From Escherichia phage vB_EcoM_PD328, in the sequence record ON922918: a stretch of DNA of 59,156 nt. The stretch is one strand, 5' to 3'. The translations under genes and the position numbers were made by a program. The notes under the pieces are model-generated. The model saw nothing but the letters and a program-made list of their open reading frames with translations. It searched no databases and was not told the DNA's origin. The number at the start of each line of letters is the position of its first letter. The stretch's first letter is position 1. Below are positions 29,437-59,156 of the stretch, in pieces.

Positions 29437-29941
29437 ATAACCCCCTTTAACGTTAACGGAATAACTATAGCAGGATACGCAAGTTGATTAACATACGTGA
29501 TCGCAACAATTAATAACCACAGTTAGTCGTCTCGTGTGCTTTAATTCATGATGCCGCAAATCAGCTACGCATACCGGCAAACCGAATATTGTAATCGTCT
29601 CTCGAGTATTTACATACGGAACTAGCTTCATACGAACAATATAGGACAGGTGAGGTGGGGATACAAAGTGTCTAGTGACGAGATAATCTACAAACGATGA
29701 ATCCTTGGCAGAGATCTAAGAGCCGCCCCGCGGCGTTACTATAACGTCCCGTGATCGTCAGTGAGGTGATTGTTACGTCATGTGACTGTCGCGCGCTCTA
29801 TTGTAACGTTGTTTATTATTACACGCGTTATTATTTTTTATTTGATTAGTGTGCTATCTATCGCATGACTATATTATACCGTCCAGTATAATTACATCTG
29901 TTACTATCTACCTGCCCACTATGTGCTGTCTATGTATGTGC

Positions 29942-49681: not shown

Positions 49682-49688
49682 GGCTTAT

Positions 49689-49928
49689 ATGGCAAAAATG
49701 ACTTTTAGGAGTAATGACCATTTACCAGAAGAAGGTGAATGGAAGACTTTTAAAGAGTGGGAAGAGTTAGGCTATGGTGTAATTAAAGGTGAAAGAGCTA
49801 AACGGTTTATTCACGGTGTTGCAGTTTTTCACGAAAGTCAAGTAATCAATATTGAAGACGAGTTCGAAAAATATAAACGTGAAGAACTGCAAGGAATGTA
49901 TTGCGGACCAGAATGGTGGAAGGATTAA
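49689..49928 (+). CDS. hypothetical protein
   Basis: 79 aa from the ATG at residue 57 of the track ORF. Confidence 0.35.
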   Translation: MAKMTFRSNDHLPEEGEWKTFKEWEELGYGVIKGERAKRFIHGVAVFHESQVINIEDEFEKYKREELQGMYCGPEWWKD

Positions 49929-50651
49929 ATGTATATCTTAGTTGATTATGATCGGATGCAGGTATTAGCCAAACATCCAAACTTCCAACGTCTTCATGAG
50001 TATGGAATTCTGTGTTGTAGCGAAAGCTCTGTAGTCCTTCCGTTGGAAGTTGAAGAACTGTATAAAGAGTTTGATGATGTGCAAATGCAACTCTTGTACA
50101 TCAACTTAACGGGTAACAAGCAAGGTGCTTTATATCCAAAGAAAATGATCAGTAAGATCATTCATTATTTTTTAAATGAGATACCGGAGACAGTAATAGA
50201 TGCGGATGTGGCTGAACAAGCGGACTGGGCAATTGCTAGTAATAAAGAGGGTGAGTGCATGTACCGCGAAGGCAGCTCTGTTCCAGATTTGGGGGAGGAG
50301 CCTAATATTCAAGTACGGAATGATAGTTCATTGGAATCCACCATCATTGACGGCCCAACCGTACAAACAAACATGGGCATACAACGGGCATGGACACCGA
50401 CAAAAGAGCGGCAAGGTACTAGCACACCGGCAACCGAAAAACGTGCCGCAACGTCGCGTACAGCCGGCACTCGCGATATTATTTTCGCTATTGCTGACGA
50501 AATGTGGAAAGAAGCTGGTGAACCTCGTGACAAGAAGGAAATCCTTCAGCTTAGAAAACAAATGATGGATCGTTTAGAGGCACAAGGTGTGAAGCGTAAT
50601 ACATCAAGTAATACATTAGGGGTCTGGGTAAAAGAACGTGGCTTAAATTAA
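49929..50651 (+). CDS. hypothetical protein
   Basis: 240 aa ORF; basic C-terminal region. Confidence 0.4.
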   Translation: MYILVDYDRMQVLAKHPNFQRLHEYGILCCSESSVVLPLEVEELYKEFDDVQMQLLYINLTGNKQGALYPKKMISKIIHYFLNEIPETVIDADVAEQADWAIASNKEGECMYREGSSVPDLGEEPNIQVRNDSSLESTIIDGPTVQTNMGIQRAWTPTKERQGTSTPATEKRAATSRTAGTRDIIFAIADEMWKEAGEPRDKKEILQLRKQMMDRLEAQGVKRNTSSNTLGVWVKERGLN

Positions 50652-50663
50652 TTAACTAAAATA

Positions 50664-50692
50664 TTGCATAGTTCTTTTAGAGGGGTTATAGT
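50664..50692 (+). promoter_or_regulatory. sigma70-type promoter (TTGCAT-17 bp-TATAGT)
   Basis: Near-consensus hexamers with a 17-bp spacer, about 55 nt upstream of the 50748 gene. Confidence 0.55.
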
Positions 50693-50747
50693 GCAACCAC
50701 TTAGAACGTAGTTCACAACCAATAACCACACTGTGAGGATTTAAATC

Positions 50748-51572
50748 ATGGCTAAAGAGAAAACTCCAGAGCAACTGGAAGCAGAAGAAGCAGCAAAGAA
50801 AGCAGCAAAAGAAGCTGAAGCAAAGAAAAAACGTGAAGCTGAAGAAAAAGCAGCACGTGAATTGCAGGCTAAAGTTGATGCCGCAATGAACGAAGCCACT
50901 GCCGGTTACAATGTGATCGAAGGTGTTGTGTCCGCTGTTAAAGAACAGTTTGACACTCTGCACGAAGGTTCGTTGCTGGACGAAGTTAAAGCAGTTGAAG
51001 GCGTAGTTACCGCTCAACTGAAGACCGCTAAAGAAGGTCTGAAAGCTGTTAAAGCAGCAGCACGTAAAGTTAAAGACAACGATCAACTGAAAACTGCCGT
51101 TGCAGCATCTGAAGATCTGGTTTCCGGTGTTGAAGCCACTCTGAAAGATGTTAAAGGCCGTGTATCCGCTGCCCGCGAAGCCACTAAAGCCGCTGAAAAA
51201 GCGAAACGTGACGCTGAACGCGCTGAGAAGAAACGTCTGCAAGACGAAGAGCGCGCTCGTAAAGCAGCAGAACGCGAAGCTAAGAAAGAGCCGGAACAGA
51301 ACGGTATTCGTAAGCCTGGTGTTGGTACTCTGTGCCGTGCTGCATGGGACATCTTTGATGCTGTTACCCTGGAGCTGGGCCAGACTGCACCGATCAGCTA
51401 CGTTCTGCCGGTTGCACTGGACAAAGGCCTGAACGAAGCGAACGTCAAAGCAGAATACGCTCGCTGGAAGAAATACATGGGCATTACTGGTCGCGTATCA
51501 GTTCCAGTACCTGCTAATATTGCACAGGCGGCCGCTAACGTAGAAATTCCGTCTCAGAAATCTGCAGAGTAA
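50748..51572 (+). CDS. Lys/Ala/Glu-rich coiled-coil protein of unknown function
   Basis: 274 aa; highly charged helical N-terminal two-thirds, distinct C-terminal domain of about 90 aa; own promoter and terminator; codon usage typical of highly expressed genes. Confidence 0.45.
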   Translation: MAKEKTPEQLEAEEAAKKAAKEAEAKKKREAEEKAARELQAKVDAAMNEATAGYNVIEGVVSAVKEQFDTLHEGSLLDEVKAVEGVVTAQLKTAKEGLKAVKAAARKVKDNDQLKTAVAASEDLVSGVEATLKDVKGRVSAAREATKAAEKAKRDAERAEKKRLQDEERARKAAEREAKKEPEQNGIRKPGVGTLCRAAWDIFDAVTLELGQTAPISYVLPVALDKGLNEANVKAEYARWKKYMGITGRVSVPVPANIAQAAANVEIPSQKSAE

Positions 51573-51596
51573 TCTGTAGACACTTCGGAAACTCAG

Positions 51597-51622
51597 AAGG
51601 GGCATTTACTGCCCCTTTGTTA
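51597..51622 (+). terminator. rho-independent terminator
   Basis: AAGGGGCA-TTTAC-TGCCCCTT hairpin followed by TGTTATC. Confidence 0.5.
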
Positions 51623-51640: not shown

Positions 51641-52405
51641 ATGTTTGCACAAGCCATTATCGCCCACCACTGGGCTCAAGCCAAATTTGGAAATCATATG
51701 AAAATTATTAATACTCAGGAACCTGAGAAGTTAGTTCGTGAACGTGGTATTCTTGACGTACATTCCATTTTTCATACCATTCAAGGCGAAGGCCCATTTT
51801 GTGGTCAACCTGCCGTATTCGTTCGATTAGCTGGTTGTAACCTGCAATGCCCAGGTTGCGATACAAACTATACGTCCAATCGTAAGAAAATGAGTCACAG
51901 TGATATTTGGCAAGAAATTGTTCGTGTCACTGGTGAAGCCAAGACTAAATTAGTTGTCATTACTGGTGGCGAACCTTTCCGTCAACCTGAAGTTGCTAAT
52001 TTTATCAACTACCTTATTGATATGAAAGGATATCGTGTGCAGGTTGAAACTAACGGAACTATGCCTATCCCGCGTGAACTCAACTATAACTGTGTGGTAG
52101 TATGTAGTCCTAAGGCAGCAAAGATTCACCCTAGCGTTTCCGCTCGAGCAAATGCTTTCAAATATGTAATGAAAAGCGGAAACGTCAACGAGGAAGATGG
52201 ATTACCGTTGCAGGCACTGGATCACCGTGCAACACCATTTATCGCACGTCCGCCTGTACACTTTAAAGGTAATATTTATCTTCAGCCTATGGATGAACAG
52301 GACGACGATGCTAATAAAGCAAACGCTCAAGCTGTCGTTAAATACGCAATGAAACATAATTATATCGTGCAATTGCAAGTTCATAAGTATTTAGGGGTTG
52401 AGTGA
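51641..52405 (+). CDS. queE: 7-carboxy-7-deazaguanine synthase (QueE, radical SAM)
   Basis: N-terminal HTIQGEGPFCGQPAVFVRLAGCNLQCPGCDT (QueE-type cysteine cluster) and VVITGGEPF; start taken at the ATG at residue 9 of the track ORF. Confidence 0.75.
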   Translation: MFAQAIIAHHWAQAKFGNHMKIINTQEPEKLVRERGILDVHSIFHTIQGEGPFCGQPAVFVRLAGCNLQCPGCDTNYTSNRKKMSHSDIWQEIVRVTGEAKTKLVVITGGEPFRQPEVANFINYLIDMKGYRVQVETNGTMPIPRELNYNCVVVCSPKAAKIHPSVSARANAFKYVMKSGNVNEEDGLPLQALDHRATPFIARPPVHFKGNIYLQPMDEQDDDANKANAQAVVKYAMKHNYIVQLQVHKYLGVE

Positions 52406-52656
52406 TGCGTGTAAAAGCTCTGTTTAAGACTACTAAAGTTATTGAGTTTCATGGTATTAAATTGACAGTTCCAAATTGGGTCACCTATCTTGCTTGTGAT
52501 AAAAACGGAACTCTGATGGGTTATGAAGGCGGGCCAATACATTGTAATGTGGAATATGGTCGTTGGGTTCCTGATATTGATGTTGGTTATTACGAGAAGA
52601 TTGCAAAAGTTGATCTTGAAGGGTTAGATTGGACTCGAACGTTGATTAAGGTATAG
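52402..52656 (+). CDS. hypothetical protein
   Basis: 84 aa ORF, start overlaps the QueE stop. Confidence 0.35.
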   Translation: MMRVKALFKTTKVIEFHGIKLTVPNWVTYLACDKNGTLMGYEGGPIHCNVEYGRWVPDIDVGYYEKIAKVDLEGLDWTRTLIKV

Positions 52657-52773
52657 AATGAAGTTATACGTTTTTGAAAACGCGTGGATGATCCCTGCCG
52701 CTAATGATCATTATGCGGGCGACGGTCAGCGTGCTAAAAGATACAATGTGTTCAACTAATAAGGTAAATTATT

Positions 52774-53526
52774 ATGATCAAATATGTCCAATTACTTGGT
52801 GAGATTGTTCCAGAAGATGTATTGAATAAGTGTCTGTTCGATGAAGACGGATTTGTAAAACATTATGTAGATACACCTTCACAGTTTGCATCTCACTCGG
52901 CTCTTGGATTTGTAATTCGAGCTGGATATGCAGTGGATGTGTTGAACGACATGAGTCCTACAGTCACTGTTTTTGTTGAAGGTATGGACGTACATGATCT
53001 TATGAATTTAAAGACCGTTTATAATACTCACGTCACGCCACCACGTAATGCACTTTACAAATGGCGTATCAATACTTCTGTTAGCAGAAGCCAGAAAGCA
53101 GCAGAAGAGAATGCCAAGAAGTATACGACATCTACTCAGAAATTAGCTTGTATGATGGACGATCTACTTAAAAACGCCTTTAAAGTTGAGCGGGACAAAG
53201 AAGGTGAGCCAGAAGTATTCATTAATGAAGCATTAATTAAAAAGGATCGTATCCAGGAGATTAAAGCTCCGCGTCCGAATAAATATATGCGCAAAATTAA
53301 AACTTTTGAATCGCATGATATTAACGGTAGCCCGATTGAAATTGATGTATGGGTTGACGTGTACGACGTAATTAAAGCATTCAATGTAACCAGTGGGCCC
53401 ATGCAACATACACTGAAGAAAGTGCTGTGTGCTGGTGAGCGCGGTCATAAAGACTTGCTGCAAGACCTCAACGACATTATTGCATCCGTTGAGCGTGAAA
53501 TTGAAATGGTTAAGGAAGGTAATTAA
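52774..53526 (+). CDS. hypothetical protein
   Basis: 250 aa ORF between queE and the Gat-QueC gene; no recognised motif. Confidence 0.4.
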   Translation: MIKYVQLLGEIVPEDVLNKCLFDEDGFVKHYVDTPSQFASHSALGFVIRAGYAVDVLNDMSPTVTVFVEGMDVHDLMNLKTVYNTHVTPPRNALYKWRINTSVSRSQKAAEENAKKYTTSTQKLACMMDDLLKNAFKVERDKEGEPEVFINEALIKKDRIQEIKAPRPNKYMRKIKTFESHDINGSPIEIDVWVDVYDVIKAFNVTSGPMQHTLKKVLCAGERGHKDLLQDLNDIIASVEREIEMVKEGN

Positions 53527-53527
53527 T

Positions 53528-54943
53528 ATGTGCTCTATCTTTGGTGTTATTACTAACGGTCAACCTGAAAGTCTTATCATTCGTAACGATATCAATGATC
53601 TTATTAAGGCTAGTATCAACCGTGGTCGTGACGGTCTTGGTGTACGCTTTACGCATGGTGACCACAGTATGCACCCGCAACGTATCGTCAGTGTCGGTAA
53701 GCAAACATCGCTGGAACGTCTTGTTAAAGTCGGGCGCATTACATCTCACGCTGGAGCTATTGGTAGCTTCACAATGATTGGTAACGCTCGCGCCGAACCG
53801 ACTACAGAGTGGGTTATTGACAAGAATGAGTGGGACCAGCAACCGTATCATATGGATGGTTGGACTATTGTTCATAACGGTACTATTGCGAACGATAAAG
53901 ACCTTCGTACCTATGCACTACAGACTAAAATTGATAGTGCTGCCATTGTTGAACAGTTAGCAGAATGTACACTTTCAGCGGATGAAATGTGTTTGTCTGA
54001 CTTTAATTACCTGTACAGTGTATTTCATGAAGTTATTCGTAAATTGAAAGGTAGCTTCGCAATCCTTGCAACACATGATTCCTTTCCGGGATGTGTGTTT
54101 ACAGCATGTAATTATCGTCCAATCTGGATCGGTAAGACTGATACTGGTATGTATTTCGCCAGCCAGGAAGACATGCTACCAACCCGTGCGATTAAGCAGA
54201 TGCTGAAACCTTATTCATGTAATGTGGTTACATCTACTGATGTATGCAATGAAGTTGATCTTATTCCAAATAAACAGACTCAACGCGCGTTAGTTGTCGC
54301 CAGTGGTGGCATGGACAGCACGGTGGCAGCTCAGATGTGCAAGTCCAATGGTCTGGAAGTCACTCTGATTAACTTCCAGTATGGTTGTCGTGCAGAAACT
54401 AATGAGTTAAAGGCTATTCGTAAGATTGCGGAAGTGATGGAAGTTCCGTTAGTTGAGTTCCCAATTCCAATCTACGATAAGAAAGACAGCCCGTTATTTG
54501 ATCAAGATGCTGCAATTGCTGGTGGCGAAGAAGGTGCTGAGTTTGCCCACGAATGGGTTCCAGCTCGTAACCTTGTGATGCTTTCTGTTGCTACTGCATA
54601 CGCAGAAGCTAACGGTTTCGACTATATTGTTCTTGGTAACAACCTAGAAGAAGCTGGAGCCTATCCGGACAACGAGCCTGAGTTTATTAACCGCTTTAAT
54701 CAGGTGCTACCATTCGCTGTAGGCGACGGTAAGCGCGTTGAAGTGCTCATGCCTGTAGGTAACTTAATGAAGCATGAAATTGTCGCTACAGGCCTGCGTT
54801 TAGGGGCCCCGCTTGAGCACACCTGGAGCTGTTACCGTAACGGGGATTTGCATTGTGGTACTTGCGGCCCTTGCATGATGCGTCGGACTGCGTTTAATAT
54901 TAATAACGCACAAGAAGTTATTAAATACGAAAGCGAGGCGTAA
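53528..54943 (+). CDS. queC: glutamine amidotransferase-QueC fusion protein (Gat-QueC)
   Basis: Starts MCSIFGV (N-terminal Cys nucleophile of class II amidotransferases); C-terminal half has the QueC PP-loop VVASGGMDST and zinc-binding CYRNGDLHCGTCGPC. Confidence 0.75.
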   Translation: MCSIFGVITNGQPESLIIRNDINDLIKASINRGRDGLGVRFTHGDHSMHPQRIVSVGKQTSLERLVKVGRITSHAGAIGSFTMIGNARAEPTTEWVIDKNEWDQQPYHMDGWTIVHNGTIANDKDLRTYALQTKIDSAAIVEQLAECTLSADEMCLSDFNYLYSVFHEVIRKLKGSFAILATHDSFPGCVFTACNYRPIWIGKTDTGMYFASQEDMLPTRAIKQMLKPYSCNVVTSTDVCNEVDLIPNKQTQRALVVASGGMDSTVAAQMCKSNGLEVTLINFQYGCRAETNELKAIRKIAEVMEVPLVEFPIPIYDKKDSPLFDQDAAIAGGEEGAEFAHEWVPARNLVMLSVATAYAEANGFDYIVLGNNLEEAGAYPDNEPEFINRFNQVLPFAVGDGKRVEVLMPVGNLMKHEIVATGLRLGAPLEHTWSCYRNGDLHCGTCGPCMMRRTAFNINNAQEVIKYESEA

Positions 54944-55267
54944 ATGAATAAATTGAGCAGCTTGGCAAGGATGGGTATAGCCCACAAGTGTTTCGGTAAT
55001 CCAATTCCTCAACAGGCTTATGATTTAATCGAAGCCGTTGAAGAAGCTATTTTGGACTTCAATCCTCAGTTGAAAGTGAATAAAGAAATTTACAAAGGAC
55101 ATAAATCACTTGAAGACATGATTAAAAGTCACATATCCGTATGGCGAGATGCGTTAGAAAAACTACATGAAGAGTCAACAGAACCGGATGATATAAGTTA
55201 TTATGCTCATGAACTTAGAGCACTCGCAGAGATTGAAGCAGCAGTTAAAGCAAAGTTAGGAGAATAA
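54944..55267 (+). CDS. hypothetical protein
   Basis: 107 aa ORF between the queC and queD homologues. Confidence 0.35.
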   Translation: MNKLSSLARMGIAHKCFGNPIPQQAYDLIEAVEEAILDFNPQLKVNKEIYKGHKSLEDMIKSHISVWRDALEKLHEESTEPDDISYYAHELRALAEIEAAVKAKLGE

Positions 55268-55268
55268 A

Positions 55269-55790
55269 ATGGGTTACACTGTTATTCGTTCACATGAGAT
55301 TTGCGCTGGTCATCGTGTTGTAGGGCATGAAAGTAAATGTCGCCACCTTCACGGTCACAACTATAAGTTCCATTTTAAAGTTGCGCCGAAGAAGACATTG
55401 TCGGAAGGTTACGTTAAGTCTGTAAGTGGATTTGCTCTAGAAGGATCCTTGGACGATGTAGGTCGCGTTATCGACTTTAGTGTGGTTAAAACTACACTCT
55501 GCCAATGGTTGGAAGATAACTGGGATCATAAGTTCCTGCATTGGAATCGTGATAATTTGATTGACGCTTTAAAAATTGCAGCAAGTCGCCCGAGTTGCCC
55601 TCTGGAACATGAAGACCATGAGCATTTCTTAAACTCGTTGGTAGCTTTACCATTCAACCCAACTGCGGAAAACTTAGCTGCATATATGGTTGACGTAATT
55701 GGTCCTCAACTGCTTGACCAATATGGTGTTGAATTGGTAGAATGCACCATTGAAGAAACGTCCAAATGTCATGTTAACTATTGCAAATAA
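55269..55790 (+). CDS. queD: 6-carboxy-5,6,7,8-tetrahydropterin synthase (QueD-like)
   Basis: CAGHRVVGHESKCRHLHGHNY zinc-binding Cys/His pattern typical of QueD/PTPS. Confidence 0.7.
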   Translation: MGYTVIRSHEICAGHRVVGHESKCRHLHGHNYKFHFKVAPKKTLSEGYVKSVSGFALEGSLDDVGRVIDFSVVKTTLCQWLEDNWDHKFLHWNRDNLIDALKIAASRPSCPLEHEDHEHFLNSLVALPFNPTAENLAAYMVDVIGPQLLDQYGVELVECTIEETSKCHVNYCK

Positions 55791-55816
55791 TTGACCACAC
55801 AAGGAAACTGCAAACC

Positions 55817-56431
55817 ATGAATGAATTTACAAAGATGACAAACCGAGCAGAAATTTCGCACAGTATTGAAAAGATTTTAAAGTTGATTGAAGGTGGCGAT
55901 GACTTGCGTGAAGGTTTAGTTGAAACTCCATTGCGCGTCGCTAAAGCATTTGAGACGTGGTTCGGGGGTTATTCTGTCGATATCGCATCCCTGTTCAAGA
56001 CATTTGAAGATGGTGGGGAAAACTGCGATGAAATGGTCATCGTCCGTGATATCCCTGTCTACAGTCATTGTGAGCATCATATGGCTCCTATTATTGGTCA
56101 TGCTGTGGTCGGGTATGTCCCGAATGGAAAAATTGTTGGCCTAAGTAAGTTATCTCGTGTGGTTGATGCTTTTAGCCGTCGTTTGCAAGTTCAGGAGCGT
56201 CTGACTAACCAGATTGCGGATGCTATCGTGGAACACTTAGACCCAAAAGCTGTGTGTGTTTACATTGATGCAAAACATATGTGTATGGAGTCGCGCGGTG
56301 TTAAACAAGTGTGTGGAAGCTCAACCATTACTAAAGCATTCCGTGGGCGTACTGCATTGGGCGATGGTGTATTACCTGATGTGACGGGTGACACATGGCG
56401 TCGGGAATTTCTTGAAGCGTGTAAAAAGTAA
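55817..56431 (+). CDS. folE: GTP cyclohydrolase I (FolE)
   Basis: Conserved SHCEHHMAP active-site motif and GTP cyclohydrolase I-like flanking regions; start at the ATG at residue 13 of the track ORF. Confidence 0.75.
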   Translation: MNEFTKMTNRAEISHSIEKILKLIEGGDDLREGLVETPLRVAKAFETWFGGYSVDIASLFKTFEDGGENCDEMVIVRDIPVYSHCEHHMAPIIGHAVVGYVPNGKIVGLSKLSRVVDAFSRRLQVQERLTNQIADAIVEHLDPKAVCVYIDAKHMCMESRGVKQVCGSSTITKAFRGRTALGDGVLPDVTGDTWRREFLEACKK

Positions 56432-56466
56432 CTGATTTGCGAATCATACATTATCTTTAATATAAT

Positions 56467-56491
56467 AAGCGCCTACGGGCGCTTATTTGTT
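56467..56491 (+). terminator. rho-independent terminator between folE and the DpdA-like gene
   Basis: AAGCGCC-TACG-GGCGCTT hairpin followed by ATTTGTT. Confidence 0.6.
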
Positions 56492-56500
56492 AGGTGAACA

Positions 56501-57454
56501 ATGCACAGAGAAGACATCAACTATACCTTTCAGATTTATATGGCTGCCGTGTATACGAACAGCTATAAACCGGGAATGAACCGCTATGTTAAACTCAACG
56601 AACAAGAAAAACGTGTTGTCGAAAATATTCCAAACATTCTTGAATCCTGGCACTACGTTGGAAAGCAATCATATGTTGATGCCATGCGTGCCGATGGGGC
56701 CAAGATATTCCTCGACTCCGGAGCGTTCTCAGCTTACACTTTGGGAGTTACGTTATCAGTTAAAGAATACTGCGATTATATCCAACGAAACATAGATATC
56801 ATTCGTGTAGAGGATGGTTCACTTATGGCTTCTGTACTCGATGGTATCGGAGATCCACTTCAAACGTGGCGCAACCAGGAAGAGATGGAAGCCAGGGGTG
56901 TAAGACCTTTACCATGCTTCCACGCGGGTGAACCTTTTGAATACCTGGACCATTATGTGCGAAATTATGAATACATCACTCTTGGTGGTCTTGTTGGAGC
57001 GAGTACACAACAACTCCAGGTATGGTTGGACAGGGTATGGGATAAACACCTTGTGGACGGTAGTGGGCGCGCGAAGATTAAAGTTCACGGATTTGGTATT
57101 ACGTCCCGTCCACTTATGGAGCGTTACCCGTGGTACTCTTGTGACTCATCCTCCTGGATCCAATCTGCAGCGTTCGGTGCTATTGAAACGCCTAAATGGG
57201 GGCCAATGCAGGTATCAGAAAAGTCTCCGTCACGTCACTATCAAGGGCAGCATATTTGTAACCTTTCAGAAATAGAACAGAATAACGTTCTACGCTACTT
57301 AGAGGAGTCAGGTTTCACATACGAGCGACTTTCAACGATATACGAATCACGCGCTGCATATAATTTATGGGCGTATGGTGTGGTCAACGCTATGATTCTT
57401 GCTAACCACAATGGGAAGTTCAACGAACGTCTCCAGGATTTATTTGACGAGTAA
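56501..57454 (+). CDS. dpdA: DpdA-like 7-deazaguanine DNA transglycosylase (TGT superfamily)
   Basis: TGT-fold-like motifs IFLDSGAFSA and VHGFG; immediately downstream of the preQ0 biosynthesis genes. Confidence 0.6.
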   Translation: MHREDINYTFQIYMAAVYTNSYKPGMNRYVKLNEQEKRVVENIPNILESWHYVGKQSYVDAMRADGAKIFLDSGAFSAYTLGVTLSVKEYCDYIQRNIDIIRVEDGSLMASVLDGIGDPLQTWRNQEEMEARGVRPLPCFHAGEPFEYLDHYVRNYEYITLGGLVGASTQQLQVWLDRVWDKHLVDGSGRAKIKVHGFGITSRPLMERYPWYSCDSSSWIQSAAFGAIETPKWGPMQVSEKSPSRHYQGQHICNLSEIEQNNVLRYLEESGFTYERLSTIYESRAAYNLWAYGVVNAMILANHNGKFNERLQDLFDE

Positions 57455-57462
57455 GGTTACTT

Positions 57463-58455
57463 ATGGATTTACTTGATGCTTTAAAGTTTGTTCAGGGTTC
57501 TGTAGCTAAGAAAGAACTCCAGGAAGGTTTAACTCACTTCCGTATTGTTGATGGTACTGTTCGCGGGTTCAACGGAACTATTTCATTGTGTAGCCCAGTA
57601 CCTTTGAACATTGACTGTACACCGAAAGCTGAACCAATGCTCAAGGCTATTGCAGCATGTGACGAAGCTGTACAGATGACAATGTTAGCGAACGGTAAGT
57701 TGAGCATTAAGTCTGGTGGCTTTAAGGTTAGTGTAGATACTCTTCAGAAACCAACTGCACACGTAGAGCCAGAAGGAACGATTCACGAAATAGACGGTCA
57801 GCTTTTTCTTAACGGTTTAAGCCGCGTAACGCCGTTTATAAGCGACGATGCTTCCCGCCCGTGGTCTTGTGGCGTGCTGGTAAAACAGGGCAGCATGTAC
57901 GCGACCAACAACGCTAGTATTATACAATATTGGTTCGGTGCTGTGTTCCCTGTTGATTGTGTTGTACCACGTATGGCCATCAAAGAATTATTGCGCATTA
58001 AAAAGCCACCAGTAAGAATTCAATGTACAGATACCAGTATGACATTTCACTACGAAGACGGTTGCTGGTTGCGTACCCAATTGCTGGAATTAAAGTGGCC
58101 CAACATTGACAAGATAATTGAGCGTACAGAAAAGGGGTCTGACGTCTATACGCTTGATACTGAACTTTTTAACTGCTTAGAGAAAATAAAACCGTTCTGT
58201 GAACGTGATGGGCGTATTTATATGGAAAATGGCGTCGTGCGTACCCATTACAACGAGCTGGACGGTGCTAGTGCAATGTTCCGTGAATCCAAGTCAATTG
58301 GCGTGTATAATATAGATCTTATTATGCAGTTGAAAGGACTTGCAACGGATTGGGACGCTTCTCGTTTCAATGAAAAGGACGAAAGGGGTCTTTCAACTCC
58401 TATTATTTTTTATGGTGAAAATCTACGTGGGGTAATTGTAGGATTTCGTCTATGA
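57463..58455 (+). CDS. DNA polymerase sliding clamp, beta-clamp (DnaN)-like (putative)
   Basis: 330 aa; pattern similarity to bacterial beta clamp over three repeated domains; directly upstream of, and overlapping by 4 nt, the DNA polymerase gene. Confidence 0.45.
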   Translation: MDLLDALKFVQGSVAKKELQEGLTHFRIVDGTVRGFNGTISLCSPVPLNIDCTPKAEPMLKAIAACDEAVQMTMLANGKLSIKSGGFKVSVDTLQKPTAHVEPEGTIHEIDGQLFLNGLSRVTPFISDDASRPWSCGVLVKQGSMYATNNASIIQYWFGAVFPVDCVVPRMAIKELLRIKKPPVRIQCTDTSMTFHYEDGCWLRTQLLELKWPNIDKIIERTEKGSDVYTLDTELFNCLEKIKPFCERDGRIYMENGVVRTHYNELDGASAMFRESKSIGVYNIDLIMQLKGLATDWDASRFNEKDERGLSTPIIFYGENLRGVIVGFRL

Positions 58456-59156
58456 GAAAAGATGCTATTGGTTTCTTTTGGGAGGATTTACCTCCCGCTA
58501 AGAAAGAGAAGAAACAGAAAGTAAAACGTCAACCAGTTGAAAGGGTATGGGAGCGCCCAGACTACCTTCCAGGTCTTGATGCAGCAATGCGTTTTGCAGC
58601 TAACGATCCGCGTATGACAGACGGTGAGTTAGTGGAGATGTATTTTGCACAAGAAACGTTCGTATACGATATCGAATGCTATAAGAACTATTTTCTTGTA
58701 GCGTTTAAAGGGGTTAAGTTCGGTAAGGTTTATTATCTAGAAATGACTGCCGGTCAGACACTTGACACGGAAAAGTATGAATGGATAATGAAGAACTTTC
58801 GTACCGTTGGTTTCAACTCAAGAAACTACGATAATACGATGACATTCCTTGCCATTGCGGGTCTGACTGTTGACAAGCTGAAAGAAGCAAGTGACAGGAT
58901 GATCCAGGAAGAGTGGGCCCCGTGGGACGTTCTCAACAGTTTTGGTGTGGAGCAGTTTTGGATTGACCACATTGACGTTCAAGAAGTAGCGCCTGGCTTC
59001 GGTTCACTGAAGCTGTATGGTGGCCGTATGCACATGCAGAAGCTCCAGGACTTACCGTTCCCAGCGCATTGGGCGCTGTCCATAGAGCAGATTGCTATTG
59101 TGCGCTTCTACTGTATTAACGACCTTGATACAACAATGGCTCTGTTTAACTCACTG
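58452..59156 (+). CDS. DNA polymerase, 5' part (continues at position 3 across the window join)
   Basis: ORF runs to the window end with no stop; contains an exonuclease-I-like FVYDIE motif; last 125 nt identical to the first 125 nt and in frame with the 3..1394 ORF. Confidence 0.7.
   Translation, partial: MRKDAIGFFWEDLPPAKKEKKQKVKRQPVERVWERPDYLPGLDAAMRFAANDPRMTDGELVEMYFAQETFVYDIECYKNYFLVAFKGVKFGKVYYLEMTAGQTLDTEKYEWIMKNFRTVGFNSRNYDNTMTFLAIAGLTVDKLKEASDRMIQEEWAPWDVLNSFGVEQFWIDHIDVQEVAPGFGSLKLYGGRMHMQKLQDLPFPAHWALSIEQIAIVRFYCINDLDTTMALFNSL

Follow-up and report, generated by a model that had tools for sequence, protein, structure and literature searches.

We analysed a stretch of 59,156 nucleotides from Escherichia phage vB_EcoM_PD328 (sequence record ON922918; hereafter the window), with a focus on positions 51641-57454, where eight open reading frames (ORFs) lie on the plus strand. 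Five of them encode QueE, Gat-QueC, QueD, FolE and DpdA, in that order, and we identify the locus, with a probability of about 0.93, as a DNA-modification module of the type known from phage 9g, carried by a Nonagvirus and leading to 2'-deoxyarchaeosine (dG+). The system is already known and has been characterised experimentally in nearly identical form in 9g. All five enzymes are intact and full length relative to their 9g counterparts, with protein identities over the full length of 97% for QueE, 96.6% for Gat-QueC, 86% for QueD, 97.7% for FolE and 99.7% for DpdA. In the 9g genome (KJ419279, 9g_00003 to 9g_00008) the five genes agree in order and strand, and the flanks are shared as well: a helicase lies upstream, and the sliding-clamp and family-B DNA polymerase (PolB) genes lie downstream. 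The window differs in having two extra small ORFs, orf84 after queE and orf107 before queD. An earlier note on this DNA had described a five-gene module composed of QueE, Gat-QueC, QueD, FolE and a DpdA-like protein; the five enzymes and their order stand, with all genes intact and on the plus strand, but the interval is more than a five-gene block, as it also holds orf84, orf250 and orf107.

The complete route from GTP to preQ0 is encoded within the locus. FolE would convert GTP into dihydroneopterin triphosphate (H2NTP), QueD would produce 6-carboxy-tetrahydropterin (CPH4), QueE, a radical S-adenosylmethionine (SAM) enzyme, would form 7-carboxy-7-deazaguanine (CDG), and the QueC domain of Gat-QueC would deliver preQ0. 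The homologues that had been announced for each of these steps were confirmed by profiles and motifs, with matches in Pfam, NCBIfam, PHROG and the PDB. The profile searches suggested as a check assigned four of the five enzymes to their families, with catalytic motifs kept; the exception was DpdA, for which a single PHROG family was returned and no Pfam or NCBIfam model. FolE, a GTP cyclohydrolase I of 204 amino acids (55817-56431, plus strand), matches Pfam GTP_cyclohydroI (3e-62), TIGR00063 above its cut-off and solved GTP cyclohydrolases in the PDB (down to 9e-43), and displays the CEHH and HxC zinc/catalytic motifs. Its start is better set at ATG 55817 than at TTG 55781, where the mechanical ORF begins, because the former comes with an AAGGAA Shine-Dalgarno sequence and is also where the 9g annotation places the start. 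QueD (6-carboxy-tetrahydropterin synthase, 173 amino acids, 55269-55790, plus strand) was assigned from its matches to Pfam PTPS (7.2e-21, above cut-off) and phrog_2389 (9.5e-56), its identity to the 9g enzyme and the presence at residue 24 of CxxxHGH, the QueD signature (PMC10516641); phmmer found no PDB match for it at 1e-3. Finally, QueE (radical-SAM CDG synthase, 254 amino acids, 51641-52405, plus strand) matches Pfam Radical_SAM (9.7e-12) and phrog_2076, 'QueE-like radical SAM domain' (1.9e-69), and its CX3CX2C cluster at residue 66 is spanned by the alignment to E. coli QueE (6nhl).

Gat-QueC (471 amino acids, 53528-54943, plus strand) is the enzyme that points to the nature of the final base; in it, a class-II glutamine amidotransferase domain at the N-terminus is joined to a QueC preQ0-synthase domain. 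The latter is recognised by Pfam QueC (1.4e-56, residues 253-458) and by TIGR00364 above its cut-off; it retains an SGGMDS PP-loop of the SGGxDS type at residue 259, and its four-Cys cluster at residues 435-449 aligns with the QueC structures 2pg3 and 3bl5. The former matches GATase_7 (1.1e-6, residues 96-217), and the protein begins with Met-Cys, a start typical of N-terminal-nucleophile amidotransferases. The conversion of preQ0 into G+ requires an amidotransferase (Gat-QueC, ArcS or QueF-L), here provided by Gat-QueC: with nitrogen from its glutaminase domain, the preQ0 nitrile would become the G+ formamidine, either before or after insertion. Since the amidotransferase domain joined to QueC is an intact one of class II, dG+ is expected as the final base, rather than dPreQ0 or dADG. 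The same fused architecture yields the G+ base in the archaeal Gat-QueC/arcTGT pathway, and the Gat-QueC proteins of phages and of archaea fall into one cluster in similarity networks (PMC6884629).

The DNA-guanine transglycosylase DpdA (phage subfamily DpdA1, 317 amino acids, 56501-57454, plus strand) would then excise guanine from already made double-stranded phage DNA and insert the 7-deazaguanine base. Its assignment rests on its fold and on its identity to 9g DpdA (316 of 317 residues), since curated sequence matches are lacking; the only profile match is phrog_887, 'queuine tRNA-ribosyltransferase' (2e-98). The predicted fold is a TIM barrel of the type found in tRNA-guanine transglycosylases (TGTs), and the best matches in a fold search were bacterial DpdA and TGTs: the bacterial DNA preQ0 insertase DpdA (7ui4) scored 13.0, bacterial TGT 12.9, QTRT2 12.1, archaeal arcTGT 11.6 and Cap10 10.8, against 9.7 or less for the best unrelated TIM barrel, with a clear gap between the DpdA/TGT structures and generic TIM barrels. 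The earlier proposal of a DpdA-like transglycosylase of the TGT superfamily is thus supported. The family is large: when 1.84 billion cluster representatives were searched with a profile, 6248 of them matched at E <= 1e-3.

Candidate catalytic residues of DpdA could be proposed from the comparison with the bacterial enzyme (bDpdA), the active site of which comprises Asp95 as acid/base, Phe99 for stacking, Asp130 for base recognition and Asp256 as proposed nucleophile (PMC10164549). Based on motif spacing, with no significant alignment, D72 and F76 of the phage enzyme (FLDSGAFS) reproduce the spacing of Asp95 and Phe99, and the nearly invariant D114 is a candidate for Asp130. D215 (SCDSSSW) is invariant in 40 diverse homologues, and a weak profile alignment (E = 0.08) pairs it with the SIDST aspartate of 7ui4; the latter would be Asp256 if the deposited chain has an N-terminal tag of ~20 residues, a numbering offset that we infer. 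D72 (with F76), D114 and D215 are therefore put forward as candidates.

The activities of the nearly identical 9g genes have been established in E. coli. The folE, queD and queE genes of 9g complement the corresponding E. coli mutants (PMC6884629). Expressed alone, 9g dpdA leads to dPreQ0 in plasmid DNA at ~0.03-0.3% of G, while dpdA together with gat-queC leads to dG+ in E. coli plasmid DNA, with no other phage partner needed (PMC6884629). In 9g virion DNA, 25-27% of dG is replaced by dG+ (PMC6884629), and both virion dG+ and restriction resistance have been established for 9g and for Nonagvirus relatives of the BASEL collection (PMC6884629, PMC8594841). We infer by analogy that vB_EcoM_PD328 behaves like 9g, with the same activities, the same dG+ product, a level of ~25% and protection against restriction: about a quarter of the G positions would become dG+, and many type I and type II restriction enzymes would be blocked. 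The earlier note had envisaged a replacement of dG by 7-deazaguanine derivatives as an anti-restriction device; this role has been demonstrated for the 9g genes that are near-identical to those of the window (PMC6884629, PMC8594841), but "replacing dG" is an overstatement, as only ~25% of G is expected to be modified.

The partial level raises the question of which G positions are targeted. Of all G in the window, 26.6% stands in a GA context; the share in 9g is 26.3%, to be compared with the 25-27% dG+ measured in 9g. The agreement is weak because G in a GC context, at 24.7%, fits the measured dG+ level almost as well; as a weak hint, the target of the Nonagvirus DpdA could be G in a GA context. 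GA is also the motif of the related DpdA enzymes of iggy and CAjan.

Several observations weigh against reading the locus as a 9g-type dG+ module. The five NCBIfam QueE models matched by QueE (1e-21 to 2e-27) all remain below their equivalog cut-offs, as does TIGR03367 for QueD (7e-17). DpdA shows no match to Pfam (PF01702 included), NCBIfam or PDB sequences, either with its own sequence as the query or with a profile made from close homologues, and even a profile built from 40 diverse members of the 6248 representatives reaches 7ui4 only at E = 0.08. The AlphaFold model of DpdA is itself of moderate quality, with a predicted template-modelling score (pTM) of 0.67 and a C-terminal third below 50 in predicted local distance difference test (pLDDT). 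The product and the protection ascribed to the DNA of this particular phage would be those of 9g, by analogy, and since QueD is only 86% like that of 9g and the locus contains ORFs that 9g lacks, its quantitative behaviour could differ from that of 9g. The lack of curated-model matches is typical of the divergent DpdA1 subfamily, and it does not tip the balance against the fold match and the identity to 9g DpdA.

The identity of the final base was further considered in the light of phage CAjan, a Seuratvirus with the same core pathway and order (QueE...QueC...QueD-FolE...DpdA-clamp-PolB) and with 69%, 78% and 74% identity to the DpdA, FolE and QueD of the window, respectively. The main difference lies in QueC, which in CAjan is plain and devoid of a Gat domain; CAjan also has an ORF annotated as a putative preQ0 transporter, and it makes dPreQ0, at GA and GGC motifs, instead of dG+ (PMC10484667). 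The final base of vB_EcoM_PD328 could likewise be dPreQ0, through an inactive Gat domain or through variant ORFs: an affinity to CAjan is seen in orf107 and in the QueD/FolE region flanking it, and QueD is, at 86%, the least 9g-like of the five enzymes. This appears very improbable, as Gat-QueC is full length, 96.6% identical to its 9g counterpart and retains both the Met-Cys nucleophile and the GATase_7 match, whereas the CAjan QueC is only 28% identical to the QueC domain of the window.

Another possibility is that a modified deoxynucleoside triphosphate (dNTP) is made first and then used by the adjoining phage polymerase and clamp during replication. The clamp and PolB genes do follow immediately downstream of the module and share its strand, and the earlier note was right to report that it adjoins replication genes (clamp at 57463-58455, PolB from 58452). 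Its suggestion that modification is coupled to replication did not hold up, since adjacency is no evidence of coupling and DpdA, a base-exchange enzyme, modified E. coli plasmid DNA without the phage polymerase or replisome. Moreover, no nucleotide kinase, 2'-deoxyribosyltransferase or other dNTP-forming enzyme was recognised within the interval with Pfam, NCBIfam and PHROG, a partial level of ~25% of G fits site-selective exchange better than a modified nucleotide pool, and all DpdA-linked modifications are regarded in the field as post-replicative (PMC10516641). We thus give very little credit to incorporation during replication, less than to a dPreQ0 product.

Least credible of all is a module acting on tRNA, by which queuosine or archaeosine in host or phage tRNA would be boosted or altered to tune translation: all five families stem from the tRNA queuosine/archaeosine pathway and the DpdA orthologue is named 'queuine tRNA-ribosyltransferase' in several public records, but this reading has been largely refuted already for 9g, whose dpdA fails to complement a tgt deletion and whose gat-queC does not restore tRNA queuosine in a queC deletion mutant (PMC6884629), and the arcTGT of the archaeal pathway, which acts on position 15 of tRNA, has RNA-binding domains that the 317-residue DpdA lacks.

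The dG+ module also differs from the bacterial Dpd system of Salmonella Montevideo (DpdA/DpdB/DpdC, PDB 7ui4). There, bDpdA depends on DpdB, a ParB-like ATPase, preQ0 takes the place of less than 0.1% of G, and dADG is then made by DpdC. A search covering 13 ORFs between 47678 and 58455, with the remainder of the window lying outside it, recognised no protein of the DpdB or DpdC type, and the upstream ORFs at 49686-51572, in which a DpdB- or ParB-like ATPase was sought, matched only PHROGs of unknown function.

Three additional plus-strand ORFs are embedded in the locus, and Pfam, NCBIfam and PHROG revealed no recognisable function for any of them. The first, orf84 (84 amino acids, 52402-52656), likely starts at ATG 52405, overlapping the queE stop codon. 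It matches phrog_1972, of unknown function (2.4e-21), with no Pfam or NCBIfam match, and is 86% identical to the ChristophMerian ORF located directly 3' of queE and annotated bas19_0035; it is absent from 9g, as positions 52406-52748 have no 9g counterpart. The second, orf250 (250 amino acids, 52774-53526), is conserved in position in Nonagvirus, and its 9g homologue is only 83% identical. Its strongly conserved C-terminal domain of ~85 residues (53266-53523) is a generic one among phages, belongs to no Pfam family and contains the sequence NKYxRxIK ... VDVYDV ... QHAxKKVLxAGxRGHKDxxxDL. It was found in 762 records from phages of Salmonella, Escherichia, Acinetobacter, Klebsiella and Vibrio, almost always in unannotated proteins; Jersey-like phages of Salmonella, T1-like coliphages, Vibrio ICP2 and phages of Acinetobacter are among them. 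No member of the orf250 alignment matches a meaningful Pfam family, a likeness to DUF3310 was not confirmed, and structure prediction followed by fold search was uninformative. We considered orf250 as a hidden component specific to the module, which is unlikely given that most of the 762 records, judged by their names only, seem to be phages without 7-deazaguanine modification.

The third embedded ORF, orf107 (107 amino acids, 54944-55267), matches phrog_24659 (1.6e-26) and shares 72% amino-acid identity with the CAjan hypothetical protein AJT60524, which occupies the same slot just upstream of queD. It is missing from 9g, whose DNA does not cover this part of the window, and from ChristophMerian, which has different small ORFs at this place. 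From these sequence comparisons, the gap between gat-queC and queD looks like a hotspot of exchange between Nonagvirus and Seuratvirus. The three embedded ORFs, orf84, orf250 and orf107, vary between Nonagvirus and Seuratvirus genomes, and at least one of them might play a part in the modification, for instance by affecting its level, the choice of targets or channeling, but we consider this unlikely.

The upstream boundary of the module may be marked by a terminator-like hairpin at 51596-51618 (plus strand), which has a 9-bp stem with five G-C pairs and a T-rich tail and was detected by consensus match only. It lies between queE and an upstream ORF rich in lysine, glutamate and alanine (50748-51572) and could act as a terminator or attenuator at the start of the module, a possible transcriptional boundary. 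Promoter and terminator scans across the module were at shuffle background, and the number of hairpin-type sites did not exceed the shuffle expectation. On the downstream side, the sliding clamp (57463-58455, plus strand; phrog_947, 8.5e-82; TIGR00663, 8.7e-6), a neighbour outside the pathway, is 99% identical at the amino-acid level to that of 9g. It is followed by the 5' part of the PolB gene (58452-59156, plus strand), identified through the 9g annotation; this gene is split across the ends of the window and, when 58452-59156 and 126-1394 are joined, encodes 657 amino acids, the same length as the 9g enzyme.

Nucleotides 1-125 of ON922918 are identical to 59032-59156, and the window is therefore a complete genome in circular assembly, with 59,031 unique bases. 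Its genome-wide nucleotide similarity and its synteny with 9g-type phages place it in the genus Nonagvirus (Queuovirinae). The DNA is ~93% identical to that of phages 9g, JenK1 and HdK1; the whole genome is covered at 93% by 9g with 92.9% nucleotide identity, and the first 25 kb at 98% by JenK1 with 92.8% identity. For the module region, 17 Nonagvirus records, including 9g, JenK1, JenP1/2, HdK1, SE1 and the BASEL phages ChristophMerian and FritzHoffmann, cover 89-93% at ~90-92% nucleotide identity. By the usual 95% criterion, vB_EcoM_PD328 probably represents a species separate from 9g within Nonagvirus, and it is at most a new species-level member of the genus.

Other features of the genome relate to restriction and packaging. 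The EcoKI site AAC(N6)GTGC is found on neither strand of the window, compared with 8.8 +/- 3.2 occurrences expected from shuffles, and is also missing from the whole 9g genome; these phages thus seem both to avoid this type I site and to modify their DNA with dG+. Judged by simple counts alone, neither EcoRI (18 sites) nor EcoRV (27 sites) looks depleted in the window. Downstream of the superfamily 2 (SF2) helicase gene, an 80-residue ORF (49686-49928) gives a weak match to the N-terminal domain of ArdC (PF08401, E = 2.7e-4), below the curated cut-off; ArdC is an anti-restriction factor. A 12-bp core, SRYCRCGGGRCG, occurs in two copies 21 bp apart on the minus strand (29724-29756), with 0.03 expected by chance, and the pair matches the direct repeats found beside the terminase (pac) cut site of phage 9g (PMC5567051).

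The locus described here is a further natural variant of a module that is already characterised, and it has some modest value for telling by comparison which of the embedded ORFs are dispensable. The DNA of vB_EcoM_PD328 is expected to resist many restriction enzymes, as well as some sequencing and cloning procedures, and the phage should prove sensitive to the 7-deazaguanine-targeting glycosylases described recently (bioRxiv 10.1101/2025.10.29.685425).

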